From the IMG/VR virus record IMGVR_UViG_3300033109_000034: a stretch of DNA of 42,273 bases; one strand, written 5' to 3'. The DNA is from a virus. Below the pieces are notes generated by a model. The model saw only the letters and a program-made list of their open reading frames with translations, searched no databases and had not been told where the DNA came from. Position numbers and translations under genes: made by a program. Shown here piece by piece: positions 16,945 to 42,273 of this stretch (the stretch's first letter is position 1; each line of letters opens with the position of its first letter).

Positions 16945-18435
16945 TCAGATTAGATACGATGTCGGGTCAGCGTGCACGTCGGCAAAGTATTTTCTCGCGG
17001 TCACTATACATCCGATGCCCGAAAGGTCAACTTGGTACACTCTCCAGGAGCCGGCAAGAAACGGCATCGAGTCGGAGTCGATCGCAAAGAAATCGCCAAC
17101 GTCCAGATATAGGCAATGGTCCCTGAGTCGAATAGTCAACGGCAACTCGGTTCGGGACGCCACCAAACGCCTGTAGGCCAAAATCTGTGCGCTGAAACCG
17201 TTAGGCGTGAATGGTAAATCAACCGCGGTTTCCCGCGCAACCGAGTCGCCAAAATACGTTGCCCGGTCAATAACCGGAGTTACCAACTTTCGCCCGGAAT
17301 CGCTTGCATCGTAGTACGTGGCTTTTATAGCGCTAAATACGCCTGCTGCAGGTGCCTCGTGCGAGAAATCCTCCACACCCAATATATCGTCATCGGTTAT
17401 CGTCGTGACTACGTCGCCGCCCTCAAACGCTTTCACGCGGTACAGCCCATCAGAATAGGATATCGCGCCGTTGAACGTAGTGAGCATTTGCGCCAGCTGC
17501 TGGGCGAGCGGCACGTCTGATTGTACGACGCCCGCTAGCGTAAACCGCTTGAACGCTGATCCGCCGAACGTGATTTCATAATCACAAGCGTCGGCGGCTT
17601 CGGCTACGGATTCCCAATCTATATAGGATTGATCCACACCGACACCCCACGCGTTGACCATCGCATGGGCGACGCATAGCGCTGGATTATCGCTATAAAT
17701 CCAGGTGCTGGAATCCGTGGCGCTGCACGTTGCGTCCCGAGGGTCGTGCACCTTCATCCCGCGAATCAGGTACGCGGGATCAGCGCCGGTCCCATACACG
17801 TAATTATGCTGTGCTGCGTCTGATCCCCAATCCAGCATAACGACACCGCGCGCAATGCCTTGCTGCCGGAAGCTCGACGCCGTGGCGGTAAACACAGAAT
17901 ATAGCAACGCGCTACGCGTTTGCGCCGCCGACCCTATCGAATCTAGCTCGGCGCTCACCATGTCATAGTAACGAGTGCCGATCACAGCGTCGCCACTTCC
18001 ATCAAGCGTAACCGGCTCCTCACCTAAATAGAGCGCGTCAATTCCCCCGATTTCTCCATCACTTAGCGCCGAGACTATGCACAAATACGGGTTGACCGCG
18101 TCCTGGAATAACACCGCGCCACCGACTCGGAGCCGGCCATATGCAAAGCGCCGCGGCGGGGTAGGCTGCCGCAGCGCAAACGGCCTCGCAAGGTTGATGT
18201 TAGCAGCCGCGTTTCCGGTGCGCGTCTGGTCAGCGTAATTAGACTGCTCCAGTGTCGGCGTGCTGCTCGGTGTTATCGTACCGCTGACGCGCTGTTGTGT
18301 GAGATAGCTATACCCCGCGGCTACCGCTGTCGCGGCGACCGAAACAAACGCCGCGCCGATGCTCACCGCGCCAACCGCAACACCTAGCGCGCCGGTTGCT
18401 ACGGCGAGCGCTATTGGGATTAAAACGGGCGGCAT
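16945..18435 (-). CDS. Host-specificity / central tail protein (Phage-tail_3, GTA g15-like N-terminal part)
   Basis: Gly/Ala-rich hydrophobic N-terminus IALAVATGALGVAVGAVSIGAAFV, as in GTA-type host specificity proteins. Position after hub and peptidase-like genes supports the call. Confidence 0.6.
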   Translation of the reverse strand: MPPVLIPIALAVATGALGVAVGAVSIGAAFVSVAATAVAAGYSYLTQQRVSGTITPSSTPTLEQSNYADQTRTGNAAANINLARPFALRQPTPPRRFAYGRLRVGGAVLFQDAVNPYLCIVSALSDGEIGGIDALYLGEEPVTLDGSGDAVIGTRYYDMVSAELDSIGSAAQTRSALLYSVFTATASSFRQQGIARGVVMLDWGSDAAQHNYVYGTGADPAYLIRGMKVHDPRDATCSATDSSTWIYSDNPALCVAHAMVNAWGVGVDQSYIDWESVAEAADACDYEITFGGSAFKRFTLAGVVQSDVPLAQQLAQMLTTFNGAISYSDGLYRVKAFEGGDVVTTITDDDILGVEDFSHEAPAAGVFSAIKATYYDASDSGRKLVTPVIDRATYFGDSVARETAVDLPFTPNGFSAQILAYRRLVASRTELPLTIRLRDHCLYLDVGDFFAIDSDSMPFLAGSWRVYQVDLSGIGCIVTARKYFADVHADPTSYLI

Positions 18436-21345: not shown

Positions 21346-23103
21346 TCAACCCCGCGTCGGAAAGCGGCGGCGCGCGTCCATAACCGCGGCGACAGGCGGA
21401 GGTCGGCGCCGCTCCATCTCAGCGAGGACGGCAGCGATGCGCTGCTCGACGCCCGTATCGGCGCCGCGTGCGTCGATATTGTAGACGACTGAGCCACCGC
21501 CGGCCGATGAGCCGCCGCTATTAGCAATCACGGTTCCGGCGGTTTGCGGGACGAACACCTCCGGCCCTTTCTCGCCCACGACGTAAGCAGTATTCCCGAG
21601 AACCGGGCCACCCGCGGCGCGGCCATCGTTCGGTGCAAACAGGCTCGCGAGCCAACTTCCGCGCATACCTTTAGACGCGTAGTCCATGAGCGGTTTGAGA
21701 ATCAGCGCCTGATTGATCGCAAGAGCCAGGTTTTTTAGCAGGCTGCCGAAATACTTATCCATGCTCTGCATGTTTCCGTCGAAAGCATCACGAAGCGGAT
21801 CGGTCAACCCAGCTTCGATCGCTGAAAACACCCCGCCCATGTTCTGTTTGATTTTCTCGTTTTCCTCATCGATGTGTTTCTTGATCTTCAAAGACGCCAA
21901 CGCATTTGCGTCGCTCCGCGCCTCTGCATATTCTTCGGCTGTAATCTTATGCTGCGCATACATGCGCCGCACTTCCTCGATTTCTTGCGCCGTTTCGTCG
22001 CGGATTAGATCGAGTGCATAGGCGGAATCGCCGGCCAATAGCTGGCGCTTCATAGCCGATAATTTGTCGGCAGCGTCGAATTGAATTTCGGTGGTCCAAT
22101 CCGGCATCTTAACGCCAAACTTCAGTGCGTCGCCATTCATGGCGCCTGACTTCTGTAGCGCTTCGGCGGCTTTCGCAAAACCGCCTACGAAATCGACTTT
22201 CGCAAATGCCGTTGTTTCCTCTACTGCTTTTTTGACTGAGTCGGCATAGCTACTCATTGCCTCTGACGCGCTCTTGACCGTGGCAATGCTTTTCCCGGTC
22301 TTTGCGTCCACAATGTCGGTATTGCTTGCGAAAGACCTATATAGCTCGACGATGCCGACGACAACCTGCTTGAACTTGGTATCAAGAACGGTCGTGAATT
22401 CGTTATATTTCCGCGTGGCCTCCGCAGCCGCACGAATGGCGTTTTCGTCGAGAATCACACCAAGGTTTTTCGCTTCATCAGCGGCGGCACGAATTCCAGC
22501 CGCACCGCTGCGAAACGCATACGCCAAATCTTCGCCACCACCGCCAAACGCTTTATTTGCGAGCGTCGTGCGTTCCGCCGCGCTTTGCAGTCGATTCATC
22601 GCGCTAATGACAACATCGAATGCCGCGCTTTGGTCTTTCGTCCCGCGAATCTGAGCCTCCACTGTAGGAAGCGCCGTTCGCAAAAACTCATAAAAGCCGC
22701 CTGTTCGCGTCTTCAATTCCGATATGTTGTTCGCGAATTGCTTTGCGGCATCGCTAAACTTGTCATGCGCAATACCAGCCTGCGAAGCCGCGAACGCCAA
22801 TTCCTGGAATTTCTGCGTTGATAGCCCGGCCAATTCAGCTTGCCGCGCCAACGCACCAGCTGAGCTAACGGCCTCTAGTGTTTTTCCGATGCTGATATAG
22901 GCGGCAATCGCCGCGCCGGCTTTTCGTAGCGCTCCGTCAATATCATTCCCAGCCGTTTTGAACTTCGACGAAGCGCGATCAAGTGCGCGTCCACTCGATT
23001 TATCGAAGTCGTCAACACTCTTTTCGGCTTCGCGCATCGCTTGCCGCATTTGAAGCGTGTCCGCTTCCAACTTAATGAGCAGCTTCTCTAGTTCGCCGGC
23101 CAC
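21346..23103 (-). CDS. Tail tape measure protein
   Basis: 585 aa, Ala/Lys/Glu-rich helical sequence. GTG start lies 6 nt after GGAGG. Position is after the G/GT chaperone pair. Confidence 0.8.
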   Translation of the reverse strand: MAGELEKLLIKLEADTLQMRQAMREAEKSVDDFDKSSGRALDRASSKFKTAGNDIDGALRKAGAAIAAYISIGKTLEAVSSAGALARQAELAGLSTQKFQELAFAASQAGIAHDKFSDAAKQFANNISELKTRTGGFYEFLRTALPTVEAQIRGTKDQSAAFDVVISAMNRLQSAAERTTLANKAFGGGGEDLAYAFRSGAAGIRAAADEAKNLGVILDENAIRAAAEATRKYNEFTTVLDTKFKQVVVGIVELYRSFASNTDIVDAKTGKSIATVKSASEAMSSYADSVKKAVEETTAFAKVDFVGGFAKAAEALQKSGAMNGDALKFGVKMPDWTTEIQFDAADKLSAMKRQLLAGDSAYALDLIRDETAQEIEEVRRMYAQHKITAEEYAEARSDANALASLKIKKHIDEENEKIKQNMGGVFSAIEAGLTDPLRDAFDGNMQSMDKYFGSLLKNLALAINQALILKPLMDYASKGMRGSWLASLFAPNDGRAAGGPVLGNTAYVVGEKGPEVFVPQTAGTVIANSGGSSAGGGSVVYNIDARGADTGVEQRIAAVLAEMERRRPPPVAAVMDARRRFPTRG

Positions 23104-26359: not shown

Positions 26360-27697
26360 TTACGACGCAGCGATCTTGAGCAGCTTGATAGCCGCGAAAT
26401 CCTGCACACCACCGCCGACGCGCTTGGTCGTGTAGAACAGCACGTAGGGCTTGCTCGTGTACGGGTCGCGCAGCACGCGGATTCCGACGCGATCGACAAT
26501 CACATATCCGCGACGGAAATCACCGAATGCGACGGGATACGCGCCCGCGCCGATATCGGCCATGTTGTCGTCAGTGACAACGGGATAGCCGAGCAGCATG
26601 CTGGGCTGCCCGACCTGATTTGCGGGCTGCCAGATGTAGTTGTCGTTGGCATCTTTGACCTTGCGATATGCCGCCGTGGTCAGGTCGTTCATCACGAAGC
26701 TGGCCGCAGCGCGATAGCCTGATTTCAGGCTGTGAATGAGGCTGATCGTACTGTCATATGCCTTGTTGGACGAGTCGTTGAGCGCAGCCGCGACGCCGCT
26801 CGCCGTGTAGCCGATTTTGCCCCAGGTGTAGGACGCATTGGCAACATTGGTGTAGCTGGTGATGCCACGCGGTTTGCTCACGCCGTCGCCGCTGATGAAC
26901 GCCGAGCCCTCTTGCTCTGAGAACACGATAGCGATTTCGCCGCCAAGCCAGCTTTCGACATCAATCGCCGCGTCGTCGAGCAGCGTTTGCGTGGCTGCCG
27001 GCTGTGCGTAGATTTCGAAAGTCGGGAACGCCAGCTCGCTGAGCTGCGGCGTGCTCGTGTTGGCGCGCGAGCCCGTCTCAGTCACCCACCCCGACGTTGC
27101 ACCGCCGAGATTCATGGGCTTTTTGTAGACTGGGCTGGAAATCGAAATCACCTCTGCCAGGCTGCGCATGGCAGAGACGGTCCCGAGGACGCGGGACATG
27201 GCGCCGACAACCGGGTCAGACACCAAGAACCCGCCGTCCGGATCGGAAAACGTGGTCATGGCCGCGCTGGGCGCGCGCTTGGCGCGGAATGCGTCGTCAC
27301 TGACGCGGCCCCCCATCCATCCGCGGAATGCAGCGCGATATTCGCGGTCCTCCGCGGACTCGCCGCCGTTTCCGCTGCCCCCGCCCAGCATAGCCGAAGC
27401 GGCAAGCTGCTGAGACATAGCGCGGACGCTGCGGTCGAGTTCCGAAATCTCGTTGTTGATGCGGTCGACCTTATCCGTGGTGACAACATCGTCACGGCCC
27501 TTGGCCAGCGCAGCCAACCGCGCGTCGTTCTCGGCCTTGAACGCCTCGAAAGCGCGATTCAGGCCGTCAATCGCGGAGCTGACATCGCGTTGCGTCGTGT
27601 CGGCCGTGTCCGCCGTAGGCTGGGGGCCAGCGTTCGGGCCGCGAAGCTTCGGCACCGCAAGCTTTACAAGCTTGCGACCAGGGGTCATGTCGGTCAT
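26360..27697 (-). CDS. Major capsid protein, HK97 fold, with N-terminal coiled-coil delta-like domain
   Basis: 445 aa following the prohead protease gene. The coiled-coil N-terminus FEAFKAENDARLAALAKG...INNEISELDRSV is followed by a typical capsid body. Confidence 0.85.
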   Translation of the reverse strand: MTDMTPGRKLVKLAVPKLRGPNAGPQPTADTADTTQRDVSSAIDGLNRAFEAFKAENDARLAALAKGRDDVVTTDKVDRINNEISELDRSVRAMSQQLAASAMLGGGSGNGGESAEDREYRAAFRGWMGGRVSDDAFRAKRAPSAAMTTFSDPDGGFLVSDPVVGAMSRVLGTVSAMRSLAEVISISSPVYKKPMNLGGATSGWVTETGSRANTSTPQLSELAFPTFEIYAQPAATQTLLDDAAIDVESWLGGEIAIVFSEQEGSAFISGDGVSKPRGITSYTNVANASYTWGKIGYTASGVAAALNDSSNKAYDSTISLIHSLKSGYRAAASFVMNDLTTAAYRKVKDANDNYIWQPANQVGQPSMLLGYPVVTDDNMADIGAGAYPVAFGDFRRGYVIVDRVGIRVLRDPYTSKPYVLFYTTKRVGGGVQDFAAIKLLKIAAS

Positions 27698-27707
27698 GTG
27701 GTTTGTC

Positions 27708-28547
27708 CTAACTCTGTAGGGTGGCGGTCAACCGCGCGAGTGCGGCCACCAGATCAGCATTCCCCGCGGTGCTCGGCTGCGCCTTGGTGCTGGGCTTAGC
27801 CTTTGCTGCGGTTCTCGCTGCCCGAGTCAGTACGCCCGGAACCTGTGAGTAGGATGATAGATCGTGAGCCAGATTCTTCGCATCGGCAACGTCGCCAACT
27901 TCATCAGCGAAACCAAGGCGCGTTGCGTCCTCCGCGTCGAGCCACGTTTCAGAGTCCATCATTTCGACGATGTCGGCCACGTCCTGCCCCGTGCGCGCCG
28001 CATACGTCTTGGCCAATCGTGTGTCGATCTGCCCAAGCAACTTCGCTTGTGACGTCATCTCAGCTTTATCGCCAACCGCGACGTTCCAAGCGTTGTGGAT
28101 CATCAAAAATCCGTTGTCGGCAATCTCGATCGTATCGCCGGCCATCGCGAGCAGCGACGCCGCCGATGCAGCAAGGCCGGTCACACGGACATGCACCTCC
28201 GCCGGGTGCTGGCGCAGATCATCAAACATAGCAAACGCGTCGAACACCGACCCGCCAGGGGAGTTGATGTTGAGCTGAATTTTCGGCGCTGTAATCGTTT
28301 TCAGCAGCGCCTTGAACGTCTGCGCGTTGAGTTCCCAACCGCCGATAACATCATAGACATCAATAACAGCGGTGCTGTTGTCCTCAAACGCAAACGCCTC
28401 GAATCGCGCCCATTCCGGACGCTTGAAGCTCTGCGCCTCACTGCGCATTCCGGGCGCACGAACAGTCTCCGCGATGCGCTGGTCCAGCAGCGACGGACGC
28501 CCGGCTTTAGCCTGGGGCTTTGCCCTCTTAGCGCGACGGGATGCCAT
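27708..28547 (-). CDS. Prohead protease, ClpP/S14 family
   Basis: LNINSPGGSVFDAFAMFDDLRQH and GLAASAASLLAMAGD are ClpP signatures. I place the start at ATG 28547, although the track ORF extends to 28637. Confidence 0.85.
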   Translation of the reverse strand: MASRRAKRAKPQAKAGRPSLLDQRIAETVRAPGMRSEAQSFKRPEWARFEAFAFEDNSTAVIDVYDVIGGWELNAQTFKALLKTITAPKIQLNINSPGGSVFDAFAMFDDLRQHPAEVHVRVTGLAASAASLLAMAGDTIEIADNGFLMIHNAWNVAVGDKAEMTSQAKLLGQIDTRLAKTYAARTGQDVADIVEMMDSETWLDAEDATRLGFADEVGDVADAKNLAHDLSSYSQVPGVLTRAARTAAKAKPSTKAQPSTAGNADLVAALARLTATLQS

Positions 28548-29835
28548 GTGCCAAAGCCTTCTGCTTGATTGCGTCCATATTGGGCAGCACCGGAGCCGAC
28601 CCGGAACTCGCGGCGCGGAACGAATCCCCTTCGCCATCGTCCCGCGGGTTCATGCGTTCCATGCGGCGCCACTCATTCGGCGAAATGACGCCGTTGCGCG
28701 CCTGGATTTCGCGGCCTTGCTGCCGTGTGAGGAAGTCGGCGCGCGTCAATTCGTCAGTTTCGAATTTATAGCTGTATTGATCCTGTGCCTGTTCGCTCAG
28801 CAAATCACGGTCGCAAGCCTGGCTGATATTCGTCAGCCAAGGCAACAATGTGTAGGTCACAAAGCCGATGCCTTGCTGCTCGATGCCGCTTCCCCAGCTC
28901 GTTCCACGGTCAATATCGCCGATCATATGCGGCGGAATACCAAAAAACATGGCGATTTCGTTGCGTTGGAACTTGCGGGTTTCTAGAAATTGAGCCTCCT
29001 CAGAGGTCATTCCGACCTTTTCCCAGGTCATGCCCTCCTCTAGAAGCATGGTTTTATGCGCGTTATCAGCACCAGAATAGGCGGCGTCAAACGTCTCTTT
29101 GAGCCTTTTTGCAGCATCGCCAGACAACAATTGAGGGTGTTTCAGCACGCCAGCGGCTTGCGCGGCGTTGGTAAACAGCTTCGCGCCATGCTTTTCCGTC
29201 TGCATGGCGAGGCCGATAGCCTCCGCAGCGGCAGCAACGGGCGACAAACCTATAAACCGGTCAGTTGACAACGCACGAAAATGCATGATGTCGCTCTGCC
29301 GCAGCGGAGTAACAACACCATCTTTGTTGCGGTACTCATAAACGACTTGCATCGTTGTTTCGTCGAATTTCGGCGTAACCCGATCCGGGTGCAGTGGAAT
29401 CAGCTGCTGATTGCGGCTGCCTACCATGAATTTCTGCACATATGCGTTGCCGCGCAACGCCAGCGTGCCTACCAGGAACCGCTTAAACTCGAATGGCGTT
29501 TGCAGAAAATTCGGCCGCTTATTCATAAGCCGGTCAAGGGGATGCCCGACCGCGATGCGACTGGTCAAGCCACCGTCTTCATAAAGGCGAAGCGGCAGCA
29601 TAGCGACGGAATCGGCGAGTACGCGCACACACGCATAAACCGCAGAGACGCGCATCGCCGATTCCGCGCTAACATACGCGCCACTTGACGTGCTAGGCCC
29701 GCGGCGCAGAATCTCTGCGATCTGTTCCGGTGTCGTAGCGCGGCGCAGCTCGCCCGTCGAAGCACGCGGGCGACGCGGCTTTTTAGAAGACGAGGATTCC
29801 GCGCGTTTCGTAGACACTCGGGCCAATCGATTCAA
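28528..29835 (-). CDS. Portal protein, HK97 family
   Basis: AMRVSAVYACVRVLADSVAMLPL, FIGLSPV and FGIPPHMIGD patterns. The start is uncertain: TTG 29835 or GTG 29817. Confidence 0.85.
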   Translation of the reverse strand: MNRLARVSTKRAESSSSKKPRRPRASTGELRRATTPEQIAEILRRGPSTSSGAYVSAESAMRVSAVYACVRVLADSVAMLPLRLYEDGGLTSRIAVGHPLDRLMNKRPNFLQTPFEFKRFLVGTLALRGNAYVQKFMVGSRNQQLIPLHPDRVTPKFDETTMQVVYEYRNKDGVVTPLRQSDIMHFRALSTDRFIGLSPVAAAAEAIGLAMQTEKHGAKLFTNAAQAAGVLKHPQLLSGDAAKRLKETFDAAYSGADNAHKTMLLEEGMTWEKVGMTSEEAQFLETRKFQRNEIAMFFGIPPHMIGDIDRGTSWGSGIEQQGIGFVTYTLLPWLTNISQACDRDLLSEQAQDQYSYKFETDELTRADFLTRQQGREIQARNGVISPNEWRRMERMNPRDDGEGDSFRAASSGSAPVLPNMDAIKQKALAHGIPSR

Positions 29836-31516
29836 TCTCCGCCGGCTTATTTAACCCTGAAACTGCCATTGCCATCGCGACGGCGCCGTCAATTCGTCTG
29901 TTTTGCTGTCGCTTGTCGAATTTACGGTTGCCAGCCGGATCGCGCGTCAACCTAACATTTGCAATGCAGTAGGTCAACAATGGATTTCCACCATGTTGCA
30001 ACTGATGCGTTAATACCAAATCTTCTAACGAATCAATTGCCGGGCTCATATCCTTGTACCCTTGGCCATGCTCGATCAAAAGCAGGTCGAGCTTCTGGTT
30101 TTTCTCCGGTGCTTTCACAGCCGCGGATACGCCAGCAGCTTCAAGCGCGCGTGCGAATTCGTGGATTCGCCAGCGGTCGAAATGTAGCTGCTTTACCTTA
30201 TATCGGCCGAGAATAACCTTGATGTGCTCTGCGATCTGCGAATAGTCAATTACCCTACCTCCGAGAACGGTCAAATAACCTTTATCGCGCCAGACCACAT
30301 ACTGCGCCGCGTCTAGAATAGACCGCTCCGCTAGGTTTTCGGCGTGTGTCCAGTGCCACGCGCGCACGGCGACACGCCCATCGGCAAGACGAAACAGCAG
30401 CACAAGTGCGGTCAAGTCACGCCGCCCGGAAAGGTCCAGCCCGCCGACCGCTTCGACGCCGGCCAACTCCTCATCGGTCACTTCGTGGTCACATGCGCGC
30501 CAGTCCGTGGAATTCACGAATGCTTGCGCGCCGTCCACGCGCTGATTGAGCTGCAAGTTTCTAAATGCGGCCTCGTTTGACGGGCTGCGCTTAGCCTTCT
30601 CGGCTTGGCTGCGCATATCCGCCAGCACTTTAAAATCACCAAGCGCCGGATTTGCCAATACCCAATTGCGCTCGTCCCACGGGTCCGCTTCGTCTGGTAC
30701 CCGAAACACCCGGCCGAAAAACGTCGGGTCATCGAGTAAGCCGCGCTCTTGTTCGATCGCGTCGTCGCACAGCTCTGACATGACGCTCTGCGGATCGCTA
30801 GACTGCGTCGAGATCACGAGCAAAAGCGCATTAGCCTGTGCGCCGAAAGATGTCGCAAGCACGTCGTACAGTTCGCGCGTTTTCGCTTGCGCCAACTCGT
30901 CATAAATCACGAAATGCGGGTTTGCACCGTGCTGCGTATGCGCATCGGCTGATAGCGCTTGATAGAAACTGCCAAGGTGGTAACAGACAATTCGTTTTGT
31001 CGCATCCATGCACGCGCAAAGCTGGCTTAGCTCCGGGTCAAGACGCACCATCTGTGCGGCCATCTTATAAACCATGGCCGCTTGGTCTCGCGTCGTCGCC
31101 GCGGAGTAGACTTCTCCATTCATTTGGCTGAGCGGGCCGACCAAAGCGCACAAAAGCAGCGCCGCGGCGAGCGCCGACTTGCCGTTTTTGCGTGCGACAG
31201 ACCACAAAGCACGCCTAACTTTGCGGTTTCCGTGCTCATCAACCGAGTCGAAAGTGTCCCGAATGAGCTGCTTTTGCCACTCACGGAGGCGCAGCGGCGT
31301 GCCTTTTCCGACACCAGATGGCACCAAAAGGTGCTCGCAAAACGTGATAATGCGCTCTGAAATAGGGCCTTCAGCTACCGTTTGCCCAATAGGCCCGCGA
31401 ATTTCGACGCTGGCGCCTCTCTTTGAGCTTTTGGATTTGGTAGCCGCGCTCTTACGCCAGGGCTTAGCCCCAGCTTGTCGGCGCATCGGTGGATTTGCTC
31501 CGCTGCGGTTTTCCAT
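29783..31516 (-). CDS. terL: Terminase large subunit (Terminase_1 family)
   Basis: 577 aa. ARKNGKSALAAALLL is Walker-A-like and HFVIYDELAQ is Walker B. Position is between terS and portal. ATG 31486 is an alternative start. Confidence 0.88.
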   Translation of the reverse strand: MENRSGANPPMRRQAGAKPWRKSAATKSKSSKRGASVEIRGPIGQTVAEGPISERIITFCEHLLVPSGVGKGTPLRLREWQKQLIRDTFDSVDEHGNRKVRRALWSVARKNGKSALAAALLLCALVGPLSQMNGEVYSAATTRDQAAMVYKMAAQMVRLDPELSQLCACMDATKRIVCYHLGSFYQALSADAHTQHGANPHFVIYDELAQAKTRELYDVLATSFGAQANALLLVISTQSSDPQSVMSELCDDAIEQERGLLDDPTFFGRVFRVPDEADPWDERNWVLANPALGDFKVLADMRSQAEKAKRSPSNEAAFRNLQLNQRVDGAQAFVNSTDWRACDHEVTDEELAGVEAVGGLDLSGRRDLTALVLLFRLADGRVAVRAWHWTHAENLAERSILDAAQYVVWRDKGYLTVLGGRVIDYSQIAEHIKVILGRYKVKQLHFDRWRIHEFARALEAAGVSAAVKAPEKNQKLDLLLIEHGQGYKDMSPAIDSLEDLVLTHQLQHGGNPLLTYCIANVRLTRDPAGNRKFDKRQQNRRIDGAVAMAMAVSGLNKPAEIESIGPSVYETRGILVF

Positions 31517-35450: not shown

Positions 35451-35464
35451 AGAGGAGCACTCAA

Positions 35465-36076
35465 ATGGACCTGCAAAAAGTAATTACCGATCACGCTACC
35501 TGGCTTTCGGGTGGCACGAACGGTTCGCGCGCCAACCTCCGCGACGCCAACCTCCGCGACGCCAACCTCTGCGACGCCAACCTCCGCGACGCCAACCTCT
35601 GCGACGCCAACCTCCGCTACGCCAACCTCCGCTACGCCAACCTCAGCGGCGCCAACCTCCGCTACGCCAACCTCCGCTACGCCAACCTCAGCGGCGCCAA
35701 CCTCAGCGGCGCCAACCTCAGCGGCGCCAACCTCAGCGTCGCCAACCTCAGCGGCGCTGACCTCAGCGGCGCCGACCTCAGCGGCGCCGGCCTCAGCGAC
35801 GCCGACCTCAGCGGCGCCGACCTCCGCTACGCCAACCTCCGCGACGCCAACCTCAGCGGCGCCGACATCTATAGCGCACGCGGGATATTATCGTTTGGCC
35901 CGGTAGGTTCGGCGCGGCGCATAGGATATGCAGTAGCGCACCCGCACGGCCCAGCGATCCAATTGGGGTGTTTTTGGGGCAGCTTGCCTGCTGCACTCGC
36001 CGCCATCGAGGCTAAATACGGTGCTGAGTCCGCCTATGGGCGCTTAGTGTCCGCCGCATGTGCTGCTTTGGAGTAA
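35465..36076 (+). CDS. Pentapeptide-repeat protein (23 consecutive A(N/D)LxX units) with a roughly 65-aa C-terminal domain
   Basis: ANLRD ANLRD ANLCD ... ADLSG ADLRY ANLRD ANLSG, read directly from the translation. SD AGAGGAG lies upstream. Confidence 0.9.
   Translation: MDLQKVITDHATWLSGGTNGSRANLRDANLRDANLCDANLRDANLCDANLRYANLRYANLSGANLRYANLRYANLSGANLSGANLSGANLSVANLSGADLSGADLSGAGLSDADLSGADLRYANLRDANLSGADIYSARGILSFGPVGSARRIGYAVAHPHGPAIQLGCFWGSLPAALAAIEAKYGAESAYGRLVSAACAALE
35531..35875 (+). repeat. 23 tandem 15-bp units (consensus gccaacctc(c/a)gcg(a/g)c) underlying the pentapeptide repeats
   Basis: Units differ at only 1-4 positions. A 45-bp higher-order unit (RY-RY-SG) occurs twice. Confidence 0.9.
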
Positions 36077-37803: not shown

Positions 37804-38037
37804 ATGCTTAGACAATTGATCGACACACGTATTCGGCTCAGCGTGCACATGTCACCACGATTTGCGGTGCTCCGCGACTTCGCCGATATCGGGCTGCTCG
37901 TGCTGCTCATCGGCCCGGTATGGTGCTCGCTGGCGTATCCGCCCGGACTGCCGGGTGCCGTGCGTCAGCTCATGTCATCGAGCGTCGCTGCGGTGTGCGT
38001 GCTCGCGCCCTATGTGCTTGCAGTTACATGTACCTAG
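37804..38037 (+). CDS. Small hydrophobic protein, first gene of the rightward early operon
   Basis: GAGGGGA SD lies 6 nt upstream. Two hydrophobic stretches are present and no HTH. Confidence 0.45.
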   Translation: MLRQLIDTRIRLSVHMSPRFAVLRDFADIGLLVLLIGPVWCSLAYPPGLPGAVRQLMSSSVAAVCVLAPYVLAVTCT

Positions 38038-38531
38038 TCGGCATTGATCCGGGGTTATCAGGCGCTATTGCTGTGCTGTTGCAGCGCGCCGGCCACGCAT
38101 CTCAATTAACCGTGATCGACATGCCGACGCTAGACATCACCGTTGCCGGCAAGCGCCGTCGCCGCCTTGATCTCGCGGCGCTAGCCGGCGCGCTATCCGG
38201 GGTTGCAGTCGGGGCGCCTGATGTCGTGCTAATCGAGGATGTCAGCGGCCGACCCCCCGGACTCAAGGGCTCACAGTCTGGTGCGTTCATGCAGGGATTC
38301 AACGCAGCCGCGCCCGTTGCGATCTGTGCCGCACTCGGTTTGCCTTACAACTTGGTGGTGCCGGCAGTGTGGAAAAAGGCTATGGGCACGCCAGCAGACA
38401 AAGACGGCGCCCGGCTCGCCGCAAGCCGGTTGTTTCCAGAATTCGCCCATCTTTGGGCTCGCTCCAAAGACGATGGCCGCGCGGAAGCTGCGTTGCTCGC
38501 TGCTTTCGCGGCGCGGAGGGTACAGTCATGA
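38028..38531 (+). CDS. RuvC-like Holliday junction resolvase
   Basis: MYLVGIDPGLSGAIAV (Asp 1), VVLIEDV (Glu), SKDDGRAEAALLA (Asp). This is the RuvC-fold catalytic pattern. Confidence 0.8.
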   Translation: MYLVGIDPGLSGAIAVLLQRAGHASQLTVIDMPTLDITVAGKRRRRLDLAALAGALSGVAVGAPDVVLIEDVSGRPPGLKGSQSGAFMQGFNAAAPVAICAALGLPYNLVVPAVWKKAMGTPADKDGARLAASRLFPEFAHLWARSKDDGRAEAALLAAFAARRVQS

Positions 38532-38722: not shown

Positions 38723-38882
38723 CCTGACAGAGGCAATCGAGCACGCGCGTCGCATGCGTGAGACGCTGTTACTGCAAGAGCTGCTGTGGTCGCAGCGCGT
38801 AGCCGCAGAGCTGGCAGAATTGCGCGGCGAAGTACACGCCGCGGAGGCGCGGCTCGAAATGCTGCTGGCTCGGCATGCCTAG
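38715..38882 (+). CDS. 55-aa helical micro-ORF
   Basis: My own translation from GTG 38715 (VADLTEAIEHARRMRETLLLQELLWSQRVAAELAELRGEVHAAEARLEMLLARHA). It overlaps both neighbours by 8 nt. Confidence 0.35.
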   Translation: MADLTEAIEHARRMRETLLLQELLWSQRVAAELAELRGEVHAAEARLEMLLARHA

Positions 38883-41181
38883 ACTATATCCGTTTCAGCA
38901 GATTGGCGCAGCCCATCTTGCGGGCGATCGATGTCGTTTGTTGGCGGATGAGATGGGGCTCGGCAAGGCCCAACCGTTATGCGCTGGCGTACTAACACCG
39001 GCTGGTTGGCGTAAGATAGGCGATCTGACTGTAGGCGCGCATATTATCGGACGCGATGGCCGAACGCACTCGGTGCTAGGCGTTTATGACCGCGGTAAGC
39101 GCGACATATACTCGGTGCACTTTTCCGATGGCACCGAGGTGGAGTGCTGCGCCGAGCACATTTGGTCGGTTCAAGACTCTAACAGACGGATGCGGGGTAA
39201 AGGCTGGTCTACAATAACAACCGGCGAAATGCTTCGGCGGGGTGTGCGGTATAGAAACGGCACCTCGAAATGGCGCATTCCGCTGATGAGTCCCGCCGAA
39301 CTTGCTCACGTACATGTCCCTATCCCGCACTATCTGATGGGGGTTCTCATTGGTGACGGCGCACTGACGAACGGCGTGCTGCAGTTTTCTGTGCCGCCGA
39401 GTAAACAGGCCATTCACGATAAAATAGGCGATCTGATTGGCTTTGACCGTCTCGGAAAGCCCCGTGGCCACGGAACTTCTATACAAGTTGCCGTGCGCGG
39501 AACGCGGCACAAATACAACGACATGCTCCGCGCGGTTGCTGATATGAGGCTAAACGTTCGCAGCAAAGAGCGCTTCATCCCGGAACCGTACAAGCTCGGG
39601 TCGGCCGCTAACCGGCTTGAACTTCTCCGTGGTCTAATGGACACGGACGGAAGCGCCGTTGATGGCCGCACGACATTCCACACGTGCTCGCTCCGGCTCT
39701 GCAACGACGTTGCGGAATTGGTGCGCTCGCTCGGAGGGGTTGCGATTATTCGCAAGTACGATCGCGCCCACGAAAGCAAACCGCCGGAATGGCAAGTCAA
39801 TGTCCGCATGTACGAATGCCCATTCAGCCTACCGGCCAAAGCGCAGCAGTGGCGGTCGCCTGCACGCGTACATGGAAAATACATCACTGCAATCTATTGG
39901 GCCGGGTACACCGAGACGCGATGCATATCCGTGAGTGCCGCAGACCATCTATACATAACTGACGGGTATAACTGCACTCATAACACCCGCCAAGCCATAT
40001 CCGCGACGGAGGCCACGCCTAGCACCCGCGTTAATGTCATATGCCCGGCCATCCTCTGCGCCGAGTGGGCCGACGAATGGGCTCGCTGCGGCGACGTACC
40101 TCGGAGTGTATCGGTGCTCGGCGCCAAAAAACAGCCAACTCCGGAAACGGCTGATGTGGTTATTGCATCATACGACCGAGCATCGCGCCCGGAAGTCGCA
40201 GGTATGCTCGCGGCACGACGCAACGCCATCGTGATTGCGGATGAGGCGCACAACCTCAAAACAATCGGTACACGCCGTGCAACCACCATACTCGGCGAAA
40301 AGGGCGACGGCTCATCCGGGCTCGTACATCGCGCTTCGGCGATCTATTTTTTAACAGGAACACCCGCGCCCAATCATGTCGGGGAACTATACCCAATGCT
40401 AGCGACTGGCCAGCGGTACAGTGGTGACTACTACTCTTTTTTGGGCGATTTCTGCGTGACGCGCGAGACGCCTTATGGCCCGAGGGTTGTTGGCTATCGT
40501 AACGCCGCGGGTCTTCGCGCGCTGCTCGACGGATGGATGCTTCGCCGCACGAACGCGGTTGAGCTGCCGCCGACCGACTGGGGCGAAATCGTCGTTGCAC
40601 CAGAAGATTGCTCAAGCGCTCACGTGCCCGGCACAGCTGGCGCCCAGCTGAAACGCGCGATTGAGCTTGGCGATCTGAGCGCAATCGACTCGCCGCACCT
40701 AGCTACACTGCGCAGAGTCACCGGGCTGGCGAAGGCTAAGCCCGTTGCGCGGCTAGCTGCGGAACTGCTGACCAGCGAGCCCAGCGCTAAAATCGTGCTA
40801 TTCGGCATCCATCGCGCCGTGATCGATATCATTGTCGCCGAGCTGCGTGATTTTGGCGTGATCGCGCTGACGGGCGGCACACCTGACGCCGCGCGAAAAC
40901 GGCTTAAGGACCAATTTCAAAAAGCCCCGGAAATCCGCGTCGCAGTGTGTCAGATGCGTGCGGCTGGTACTGGGTTGACGCTCACAGCTGCAAACCACCT
41001 ATGGATTGTCGAACCGAGCTGGGTTCCGGCAGACAATGACCAGGCGGCAAAAAGGATCGTGCGCATCGGGCAGCACCGGAGCACAAGCGTCAAAATGGTC
41101 ACTCTCGACACGAGCATAGACCGCGCGGTCAACAGCGTGTTGAGAAAAAAGCGCCAACTCATTGATGAGATATTGAGTTAA
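38875..41181 (+). CDS. SNF2-family helicase precursor containing an intein
   Basis: LYPFQQIGAAHL, LADEMGLGK | intein | TRQAIS, VIADEAHNLK, LTGTPAPN, QMRAAGTGLTLTAANHLWIVEPSWVPADNDQAAKRIVRIGQ. Confidence 0.9.
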   Translation: MPRLYPFQQIGAAHLAGDRCRLLADEMGLGKAQPLCAGVLTPAGWRKIGDLTVGAHIIGRDGRTHSVLGVYDRGKRDIYSVHFSDGTEVECCAEHIWSVQDSNRRMRGKGWSTITTGEMLRRGVRYRNGTSKWRIPLMSPAELAHVHVPIPHYLMGVLIGDGALTNGVLQFSVPPSKQAIHDKIGDLIGFDRLGKPRGHGTSIQVAVRGTRHKYNDMLRAVADMRLNVRSKERFIPEPYKLGSAANRLELLRGLMDTDGSAVDGRTTFHTCSLRLCNDVAELVRSLGGVAIIRKYDRAHESKPPEWQVNVRMYECPFSLPAKAQQWRSPARVHGKYITAIYWAGYTETRCISVSAADHLYITDGYNCTHNTRQAISATEATPSTRVNVICPAILCAEWADEWARCGDVPRSVSVLGAKKQPTPETADVVIASYDRASRPEVAGMLAARRNAIVIADEAHNLKTIGTRRATTILGEKGDGSSGLVHRASAIYFLTGTPAPNHVGELYPMLATGQRYSGDYYSFLGDFCVTRETPYGPRVVGYRNAAGLRALLDGWMLRRTNAVELPPTDWGEIVVAPEDCSSAHVPGTAGAQLKRAIELGDLSAIDSPHLATLRRVTGLAKAKPVARLAAELLTSEPSAKIVLFGIHRAVIDIIVAELRDFGVIALTGGTPDAARKRLKDQFQKAPEIRVAVCQMRAAGTGLTLTAANHLWIVEPSWVPADNDQAAKRIVRIGQHRSTSVKMVTLDTSIDRAVNSVLRKKRQLIDEILS
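38968..39984 (+). mobile_element. Intein (339 aa) with LAGLIDADG homing endonuclease and the class 3 (Trp-Cys-Thr) signature
   Basis: It starts AQPLCAGVLTPAGWRKIGDL, and block B is ECCAEHIW. The LAGLIDADG motifs are YLMGVLIGDGAL and LLRGLMDTDGSA. Block F is TRCISVSAADHLYITDGY. It ends CTHN followed by Thr. Confidence 0.8.
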
Positions 41182-41697: not shown

Positions 41698-42273
41698 ATG
41701 GCCGACACAAAAGTTCATTCGAAGCTTGGTGCATCCAGCGCCAAGCGCTGGCTAGCCTGCCCCGGCAGTGTCGCGCTTTGCGCGGGCATCCCTAGCAAGG
41801 ACTCCAAATATTCGCGAGAGGGCTCTTGTGCCCACGCGATCGCAGAGGATTGCTTGCGCCGCGGTCAACACGCCGCGACGTGGGCCGGCAAAACACACCC
41901 TGAATTCCCTGATATCAAACTGACTCATGAGTTATTGCGGCATGTGCAAACGTACTGCACACACGTCCGCATGCTCAACGGTGCCGATTGTGAAACGCGC
42001 ATCGAGTCTGGTTTTTGGTTGGCGGATATCGACGCCGATCTTTTCGGCACCAATGACGCCATTGTGTTTCAGCGCCGTACCGGCGCGCTGCATGTGCTCG
42101 ACTACAAGCACGGCGCCGGGGTCAAGGTGTTCGCGGAGCGAAACCCACAACTCATGTACTACGGGCTTGGCGCGCTGCTTGAATTTGGCAGCGCCGTGAA
42201 ATCCGTGACGTTGCACGTCGTGCAACCTCGCTGCGGCAACGGCGCTCCGGAATCATGGACGTGCACACCAGCA
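41698..42273 (+). CDS. DUF2800 Cas4-like nuclease, N-terminal part (continues at 1..845)
   Basis: My own translation from ATG 41698: MADTKVHSKLGASSAKRWLACPGSVALCAG...SREGSCAHAIAED...LFGTNDAIVFQ. The frame is open to the window end. It is not in the ORF track because no stop is reached. Confidence 0.8.
   Translation, partial: MADTKVHSKLGASSAKRWLACPGSVALCAGIPSKDSKYSREGSCAHAIAEDCLRRGQHAATWAGKTHPEFPDIKLTHELLRHVQTYCTHVRMLNGADCETRIESGFWLADIDADLFGTNDAIVFQRRTGALHVLDYKHGAGVKVFAERNPQLMYYGLGALLEFGSAVKSVTLHVVQPRCGNGAPESWTCTPA
42035..42273. repeat. Terminal overlap, second copy (identical to 1..239)
   Basis: See 1..239. Confidence 0.95.

Follow-up and report, generated by a model that had tools for sequence, protein, structure and literature searches.

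Why should a phage helicase carry several hundred extra residues in the middle of its ATP-binding motif? The question is raised by IMG/VR virus record IMGVR_UViG_3300033109_000034, a DNA of 42,273 nucleotides (nt) that was analyzed as a whole and is called the window below. Here a 768-amino-acid (768-aa) open reading frame (ORF) encodes an SNF2-family helicase whose Walker A motif (motif I) stops at a lysine and resumes 339 codons later at a threonine. We conclude that the interrupting segment is very probably a class 3 bifunctional intein, placed at GLGK|T and predicted to splice, a reading that draws on the sequence, on a structure model and on analogy with inteins studied by others. All the codon positions and peptides quoted in an initial annotation of this DNA (LTPAGWRKIGDLTVG, AEHIW, YLMGVLIGDGAL, LLRGLMDTDGSA, TRCISV, CTHN) are present on direct reading, and its 768-aa SNF2 helicase ORF was confirmed at 38875..41181 (+) by Pfam matches to SNF2-rel_dom (PF00176, 9e-11) and Helicase_C (PF00271, 3.1e-10), both of which exceed the curated cut-offs.

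Insertion site and domains of the insert

The host protein has an N-terminal ATPase domain with motifs I, II and III, followed by a helicase C domain, as in other members of the SNF2 family, and in the alignment its start methionine is also the start of the intein-free homologues P0002-P0004. Excising 339 aa from 768 aa leaves, by arithmetic, a spliced helicase of 429 aa. This hypothetical protein has 627 homologues, nearly all of them 400-460 aa long and made up of SNF2 and Helicase_C domains alone. The parts of the precursor and the codons at its junctions are as follows.

38875..41181 (+), including the stop codon: 768-aa ORF of the precursor, a phage SNF2-family helicase interrupted in Walker A (motif I) by the intein; assigned by Pfam
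38875..38967 (+): N-extein, 31 aa, C-terminal end LADEMGLGK, in which Lys31 is intein position -1
38965-38967 (+): Lys31, codon AAG; bases read directly
38968..39984 (+): intein, 339 aa, from Ala1 to Thr337-His338-Asn339; placed by the gap in homologues, by intein homologues and by the AlphaFold model
38968-38970 (+): Ala, intein residue 1, codon GCC; bases read directly
38980-38982 (+): Cys, intein residue 5, codon TGC; bases read directly
39985..41181 (+): C-extein, 398 aa plus stop codon, from Thr371 (+1 nucleophile and Thr of GLGKT), with DEAH, LTGTPAPN and the helicase C domain
39985-39987 (+): Thr371 (+1), codon ACC; bases read directly

The public Joint Genome Institute (JGI) gene call for this locus, P0001, is a 631-aa 'hypothetical protein' (39286-41181) that begins at Met138 of the ORF, within the intein, so that its record leaves out the N-extein together with the splicing domain's N-terminal half. 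For annotation, the value of the analysis is that the true 429-aa helicase is recognized and this truncated call corrected.

The junctions follow from the homologues that lack the insert. We aligned the window ORF with ten homologues that have no intein (39-80% identical in the alignment): D(E/D)MG(L/I)GK(T/S) is uninterrupted in every one of them, and opposite the window ORF they leave a single clean gap of exactly 339 residues. The insert is thus absent from close homologues, and its removal restores GLGKT. The homologues need a lysine and then a threonine, and the insert has THN at its end, which leaves a single possible position, between Lys31 and Thr371, and makes residue 1 of the intein an alanine. 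The initial annotation had chosen these junctions, with GLGKT restored and Ala1, and had named a comparison with intein-free homologues as the check; the comparison bears the choice out, as no homologue contains AQPL. The intein is therefore exactly 339 aa, from 38968 to 39984.

What kind of protein is the insert? Protein searches returned intein homologues down to E = 1.7e-92; with the matches to solved inteins given next and the clean gap described above, this speaks against a chance resemblance. Among solved structures the best sequence matches are Mycobacterium smegmatis DnaB intein 1 (Msm DnaBi1, 6bs8; 1.6e-10) and MchDnaB1 (6rix and 6riy; approximately 2e-8 to 2.6e-8), and the alignment to all three runs in register, residue 8 to residue 8, superposing AEHIW on AQHQW, TRCISV...DHLY on VRCVEV...EHLY and CTHN on PTHN of these class 3 DnaB inteins. 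These matches, together with the Pfam and Foldseek results, divide the insert into the following parts.

38968..39282 (+): N-terminal half of the HINT splicing domain, approximately residues 1-105 (boundary approximate); includes blocks A (AQPLCAGVLTPAGW) and B (ECCAEHIW)
39283..39867 (+): LAGLIDADG homing endonuclease domain, approximately residues 106-300 (boundaries approximate); assigned by Pfam (LAGLIDADG_3, 8.4e-6) and Foldseek
39331..39366 (+): LAGLIDADG motif 1, YLMGVLIGDGAL, residues 122-133, acidic residue Asp130
39622..39657 (+): LAGLIDADG motif 2, LLRGLMDTDGSA, residues 219-230, acidic residue Asp227
39868..39984 (+): C-terminal part of the splicing domain, approximately residues 301-339; includes blocks F (TRCISVSAADHLY) and G (GYNCTHN)

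The N-terminal half of the splicing domain is in register with residues 8-74 of 6bs8 and has beta strands in the model over residues 7-104, and the C-terminal part, aligned to RCVEV...HLY...PTHN of 6bs8, has strands over residues 304-338. The AlphaFold model of the intein, built on 38 relatives, has a mean predicted local distance difference test (pLDDT) score of 95 and a predicted template modelling (pTM) score of 0.93. Used whole as a Foldseek query, it finds PI-SceI (the VMA1 intein; TMq 0.73) and the TliVMA and PI-PfuI inteins (TMq 0.63-0.67), so that the two-domain fold is common to all of them, although these inteins differ from the window copy in being class 1, with a Cys1 nucleophile, an Asp-type F:4 and no Trp/Cys/Thr (WCT) triplet, and are only 10-17% identical to it. 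The splicing domain by itself matches the class 3 inteins MchDnaB1 and Msm DnaBi1 (TMt 0.83-0.85), while the middle domain resembles I-DmoI (TMt ~0.6), which is a LAGLIDADG enzyme of the monomeric two-motif kind, and the endonuclease domain of PI-SceI. On account of the sequence matches to inteins in the PDB and the Foldseek matches of the AlphaFold model, we identify the insert as a bifunctional intein with a LAGLIDADG endonuclease nested in a HINT splicing domain.

The details agree with this identification. Blocks A, B, F and G are all present, together with the C-terminal His-Asn and a nucleophilic +1 residue (THN|T). The endonuclease agrees with the definition of a two-motif monomeric enzyme, in which both LAGLIDADG helices end in a catalytic acidic residue and belong to an alpha-beta-beta-alpha-beta-beta-alpha pseudo-dimer fold: it has an acidic residue in both helices, the I-DmoI fold match and a Pfam match to LAGLIDADG_3 (PF14528, 2.5e-5) that exceeds the curated cut-off. 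The two LAGLIDADG motifs named in the initial annotation, for which a hidden Markov model (HMM) check against Pfam has now been run, are thus complete and keep Asp130 and Asp227. Their conservation was read from a family table of 50 aligned sequences, the window copy and 49 full-length relatives from the first intein search: in motif 1 Gly125 and Gly131 are invariant and Asp130 is found in 43 of the 50, and in motif 2 all 50 have L220, G222, L223, D225, D227 and G228.

We also considered that the segment could be a lineage-specific insertion domain of the helicase, kept in the mature protein and no intein at all. An insertion certainly exists, and insertions other than inteins occur at other places in some SNF2 homologues, as P0040 shows. 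However, such a domain would have to account for the HINT and LAGLIDADG folds and the intein-specific motifs, for the presence of the same element in unrelated ATPases (PhoH, terminase, DnaB and AAA_24 proteins), and for a Walker A motif broken between its Lys and its Thr, which is incompatible with ATP binding unless the insert is removed. We find this explanation scarcely credible.

Class assignment and predicted splicing route

Class 3 inteins are defined by the lack of Cys, Ser or Thr at position 1 and by Trp at B:12, Cys at F:4 and Thr at G:5, usually with Ser or Thr at +1 (PMC2807308, PMC3196547). In the window copy the corresponding residues are these, with Ala1 and Thr371 as given above.

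39157..39165 (+): His64-Ile65-Trp66 of block B (B:10 to B:12), with Trp66 as the W of WCT; 6bs8 has H-Q-W at the aligned positions
39922..39924 (+): Cys319, codon TGC, F:4 in block F and predicted to be the class 3 nucleophile; aligned to RCVEV of 6bs8
39976..39984 (+): Thr337-His338-Asn339 (ACT-CAT-AAC), G:5-7, Thr337 being the T of WCT and Asn339 the cyclizing residue

The window copy therefore has every residue of the class 3 definition, Ala1, Trp66, Cys319, Thr337 and Thr+1, and the triplet that the initial annotation had picked out at B:12, F:4 and G:5 falls on near-invariant columns of the intein's own family. Trp66 is kept in 47 of the 50 sequences, Cys319 in 49 (it is invariant in alignment A2) and Thr337 in all; His64 at B:10 is likewise kept in 50/50, and His338 (G:6) and Asn339 (G:7) in 49/50 each. 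Residue 1 is Ala in 39 of the 50 and Cys in none. At position -1, where the window copy has Lys, 39 have Lys and five have Arg, and at position +1 (Thr371 in the window copy) 47 have Thr or Ser. In a ranking of solved inteins by sequence similarity to the window copy, the class 3 DnaB inteins stand nearest and the class 1 intein gp41-1 comes behind them; the WCT triplet is common to all close relatives of the window copy.

The competing start is Cys5 (38980-38982). If the insert were an ordinary class 1 intein beginning there, splicing would open with an N-S acyl shift at that cysteine and leave the helicase with GLGKAQPL-TRQ. A cysteine is indeed present four residues into the insert, and a few inteins with the WCT triplet do start with Ser or Cys (PMC2807308). 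However, every intein-free homologue reads GLGK(T/S) and has no extra residues resembling AQPL, and the spliced product would be without a Ser or Thr after the P-loop Lys. AQPL also belongs to block A throughout the family, where it always comes straight after the P-loop Lys, and from residue 1 onwards the solved class 3 inteins are in register with the insert. Furthermore, none of the 49 other relatives has Cys at position 5, where Asp, the commonest residue, predominates along with Thr and Gly. The initial annotation had thought the Cys5 start the less likely one, and this judgement held. We rejected that start on the junction alignment, the family conservation and the register with solved class 3 inteins together, and rate a class 1 intein from Cys5 as highly unlikely.

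The closest characterized systems for the splicing domain, by sequence and by fold, are the class 3 DnaB inteins. The MP-Be (mycobacteriophage Bethlehem) DnaB intein, Msm DnaBi1 and MchDnaB1 share with the window copy the WCT residues at B:12, F:4 and G:5, Ala1, His at B:10, the C-terminal THN, Thr or Ser at +1, the site after the P-loop Lys and the phage setting. They differ in their host protein, DnaB instead of SNF2, and in their low identity to the window copy outside blocks A and B. The solved structures of the class are, moreover, all mini-inteins without an endonuclease, to which the window copy adds a class 3 intein of full length whose endonuclease seems intact. The Deinococcus radiodurans Snf2 (Dra Snf2) intein is likewise a class 3 intein in an SNF2-family protein, a likeness drawn from descriptions of it. 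A block F branched intermediate was reportedly detected for it by Brace and colleagues in 2010.

For a class 3 intein at GLGK|T the following route can be proposed, each step being inferred from experiments on the MP-Be DnaB, Dra Snf2 and Msm DnaBi1 inteins. In the 768-aa precursor the P-loop would be split, making ATP hydrolysis impossible and the protein inactive. As residue 1 is Ala, the intein has no N-terminal nucleophile; instead Cys319 (F:4), aided by His64, Trp66 and Thr337, would attack the Lys31-Ala1 bond and form a block F thioester branched intermediate. The N-extein would then be moved onto the Thr+1 side chain, yielding the usual block G branch, cyclization of Asn339 would free the 339-aa intein, and an O-to-N acyl shift would complete a 429-aa helicase with GLGKT intact. 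The initial annotation had put forward this branched route: the class 3 residue set on which it depends stood, and block F splicing itself is for the window copy a prediction from sequence.

The active site is rich in cysteines beyond Cys319.

39145-39150 (+): Cys60 and Cys61, block B:6 and B:7
39973-39975 (+): Cys336 (G:4), directly before the Thr of WCT

Across the family table Cys is found at B:6 in 37 of the 50 sequences and at B:7 in 13, and Cys336 and Cys5, the latter next to the N-junction, are each unique to the window copy. In Msm DnaBi1 the pair Cys48-Cys118 has been shown to act as a reversible disulfide trap (PMC6195587). By analogy one may speculate that maturation of the helicase is redox-gated, a reversible disulfide to Cys319 holding the precursor inactive under oxidizing conditions. 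We think this unlikely; if it were true, phage DNA metabolism would depend on the redox state of the host.

Distribution and mobility of the intein family

How unusual is such an intein? The initial annotation had called the class 3 signature rare, and this was overstated: the family is large (4,107 clusters, 829 phage records) and typical of phage P-loop ATPases. An exhaustive HMMER search of 1.84 billion representative proteins gave 16,465 matches at E≤0.001, of which 11,750 reached E≤1e-10 and 4,107 reached E≤1e-30. With tblastn against deposited phage genomes the family was found in 829 records, among them 299 Mycobacterium phages and 178 Salmonella phages, and at full length in 678, all of these copies being less than 60% identical to the window copy. 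Many unrelated P-loop NTPases serve as hosts (AAA_24 proteins, PhoH, the large terminase, DnaB, DnaA-like proteins and SNF2), and the intein sits nearly always after the P-loop Lys. The 148 best representatives include 52 with SNF2-type exteins, and about one third of the best relatives are at GLGK|T; the 158 complete intein copies in these 148 proteins have Lys at -1 in 130 cases, a C-terminal THN in 152 and Thr or Ser at +1 in 157. The paper that defined the class already listed SNF2 among its host proteins and placed most class 3 inteins within the ATPase P-loop (PMC2807308). By sequence, the window intein is thus a well-identified, ordinary but divergent member of a known family, and nothing in the databases searched is more than 53% identical to it. 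A specialist is not expected to be surprised by it, and what is known of intein mechanisms is unchanged by the finding.

Within this family the closest copies found are SNF2 inteins at the same site, which are 43-53% identical to the window intein while their exteins are only 26-36% identical to its extein. They share ...PGLGK|(M/G/A/Q/D)xP...THN|T(I/P)QA... and a LAGLIDADG endonuclease, and vary at residue 1 (Met, Gly, Asp, Gln or Ala). Two come from named phages, DOMOVOI_04070 of Brevundimonas phage vB_BpoS-Domovoi (ADQPGLGK|MASV...VTHN|TIQAIG) and UIS25248.1 of Erythrobacter phage vB_EliS-L02 (GDPPGLGK|GHPL...VTHN|TIQAIG). Neither has an intein annotation, the database labels of the same-site phage proteins being only 'helicase' or 'RNA polymerase-associated protein'. 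Metagenomic relatives at this site are P0204, P0205, P0207, P0212, P0220, P0232 and P0126.

Other arrangements were seen in passing. Many of the top representative hits (P0202, P0203, P0206, P0208 and others) have two to four family copies in one polypeptide of 1,200-2,200 aa, and some of the inteins in these multi-copy proteins start with Pro after Gly, e.g., GFLPG|PQPL, which suggests further insertion sites in other proteins. The SNF2 homologues P0080 and P0091 (37-38% identical) carry another intein, in motif II (LILDE|CF...VVGN|CHYLKN), with a precomputed Pfam match to Intein_splicing (PF14890) and no LAGLIDADG motif seen by eye; at least two different sites in SNF2 phage helicases are therefore occupied by inteins.

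The window intein and its extein have different nearest relatives. The closest inteins, P0205 and P0204, are 51-53% identical and occupy the same site, with exteins that are only 29-36% identical to that of the window, whereas the closest exteins, P0002-P0004, are 77-79% identical and contain no intein. This discordance between intein and extein similarity implies horizontal mobility. The phage of P0002 has a replication module that is syntenic with that of the window and comprises SNF2, a PD-(D/E)XK nuclease, an Enc34-type single-strand DNA-binding protein, DNA polymerase A and a primase-polymerase. The reconstructed empty site of the window reads GATGAGATGGGGCTCGGCAAG|ACCCGCCAAGCCATATCC. The actual empty site in L001 differs from it at few positions, all synonymous: 6 of the 33 upstream bases differ and the first 15 downstream bases are nearly identical. 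Nucleotide identity between the window extein and L001 was judged from 78 bases aligned by hand around the site; blastn at megablast defaults found no match between the two. Together, the discordant similarities and the near-identical empty site make a natural donor and recipient pair for intein homing between phages.

If the endonuclease is active, it would, once freed, cleave the alleles of co-infecting relatives that have no intein, at the junction GGCAAG|AC(C/G)CGCCAAGCC, and repair after cleavage would copy the intein into the empty allele, which would account for the patchy distribution. A six-frame search of the window with the family HMM found only the copy in the helicase as regards a second intein or a free-standing relative.

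Several points weigh against an active, mobile class 3 intein. First, block B:7 is Cys in the window copy, where the DxxH motif reported for Msm DnaBi1 has Asp (PMC6195587). In the MP-Be DnaB intein, however, this position is Ser and dispensable for N-terminal cleavage (PMC2807308), and across the family table it is S, C, D, G or N. Second, an inactive class 3 look-alike is known, Arth_1007, but this element is without Cys F:4 (PMC3196547). Third, the evidence that implies horizontal mobility is distributional. Fourth, there is no compositional sign of a recent arrival, the G+C content being 0.567 for the intein and 0.594 for the extein; since the two are similar, composition is silent on the time of arrival.

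These observations bear on the possibility that the element has decayed into a pseudo-intein, which would still look like class 3 and splice poorly or not at all, leaving the helicase non-functional or supplied in trans. In a variant of this idea only the endonuclease would be dead, as in a late phase of the homing cycle. Besides the precedent of the non-splicing Arth_1007, decay would fit the odd extra cysteines at positions 5 and 336 (G:4), and an intein G+C that has converged on that of the host gene would suggest long residence, during which endonucleases tend to decay. On the other side, the frame is open across 768 codons, H64, W66, C319, T337, H338, N339, T+1 and the acidic residues of both LAGLIDADG motifs are retained, and the model folds confidently. 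The extein is well conserved relative to intein-free homologues, and the helicase lies within the replication module of an otherwise complete phage genome. We therefore regard decay as quite improbable and prefer a class 3 intein that is predicted to splice.

The phage genome around the helicase

The proteins encoded in the window are those of a tailed phage, so that the phage origin assumed for the helicase in the initial annotation is borne out. A perfect direct repeat of 239 bp, at 1-239 and 42035-42273, implies a complete genome of 42,034 bp; the contig is circularly closed or terminally redundant and represents a complete phage genome. The main landmarks are listed here.

Start of the window: Gp2.5-like single-strand DNA-binding protein, DNA polymerase A and primase/helicase
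16945-18435: tail fibre
21346-23103: tape measure protein
26360-27697: major head protein
28528-29835: portal protein
29783-31516: large terminase
37920-38531 (+): RuvC-like resolvase of Holliday junctions (phrog_1770, 2e-27), immediately upstream of the SNF2 gene

The replication module spans the window junction, and with the RuvC-like resolvase recombination functions adjoin the putative homing site. A blastn search of the ORF in distant mode against deposited phages gave no nucleotide match, and a search of representative bacterial genomes for prophage relatives of the spliced extein gave two distant hits only (26-31% identity). A tandem array of approximately 31 copies of a 15-nt unit lies at 35454-35918, within an ORF at 35465-36076 (+) that encodes a 203-aa pentapeptide-repeat protein, (A/D)NL(R/S)(D/G/Y)..., with a non-repetitive C-terminal tail; it may be a phage protein of the DNA-mimic type.

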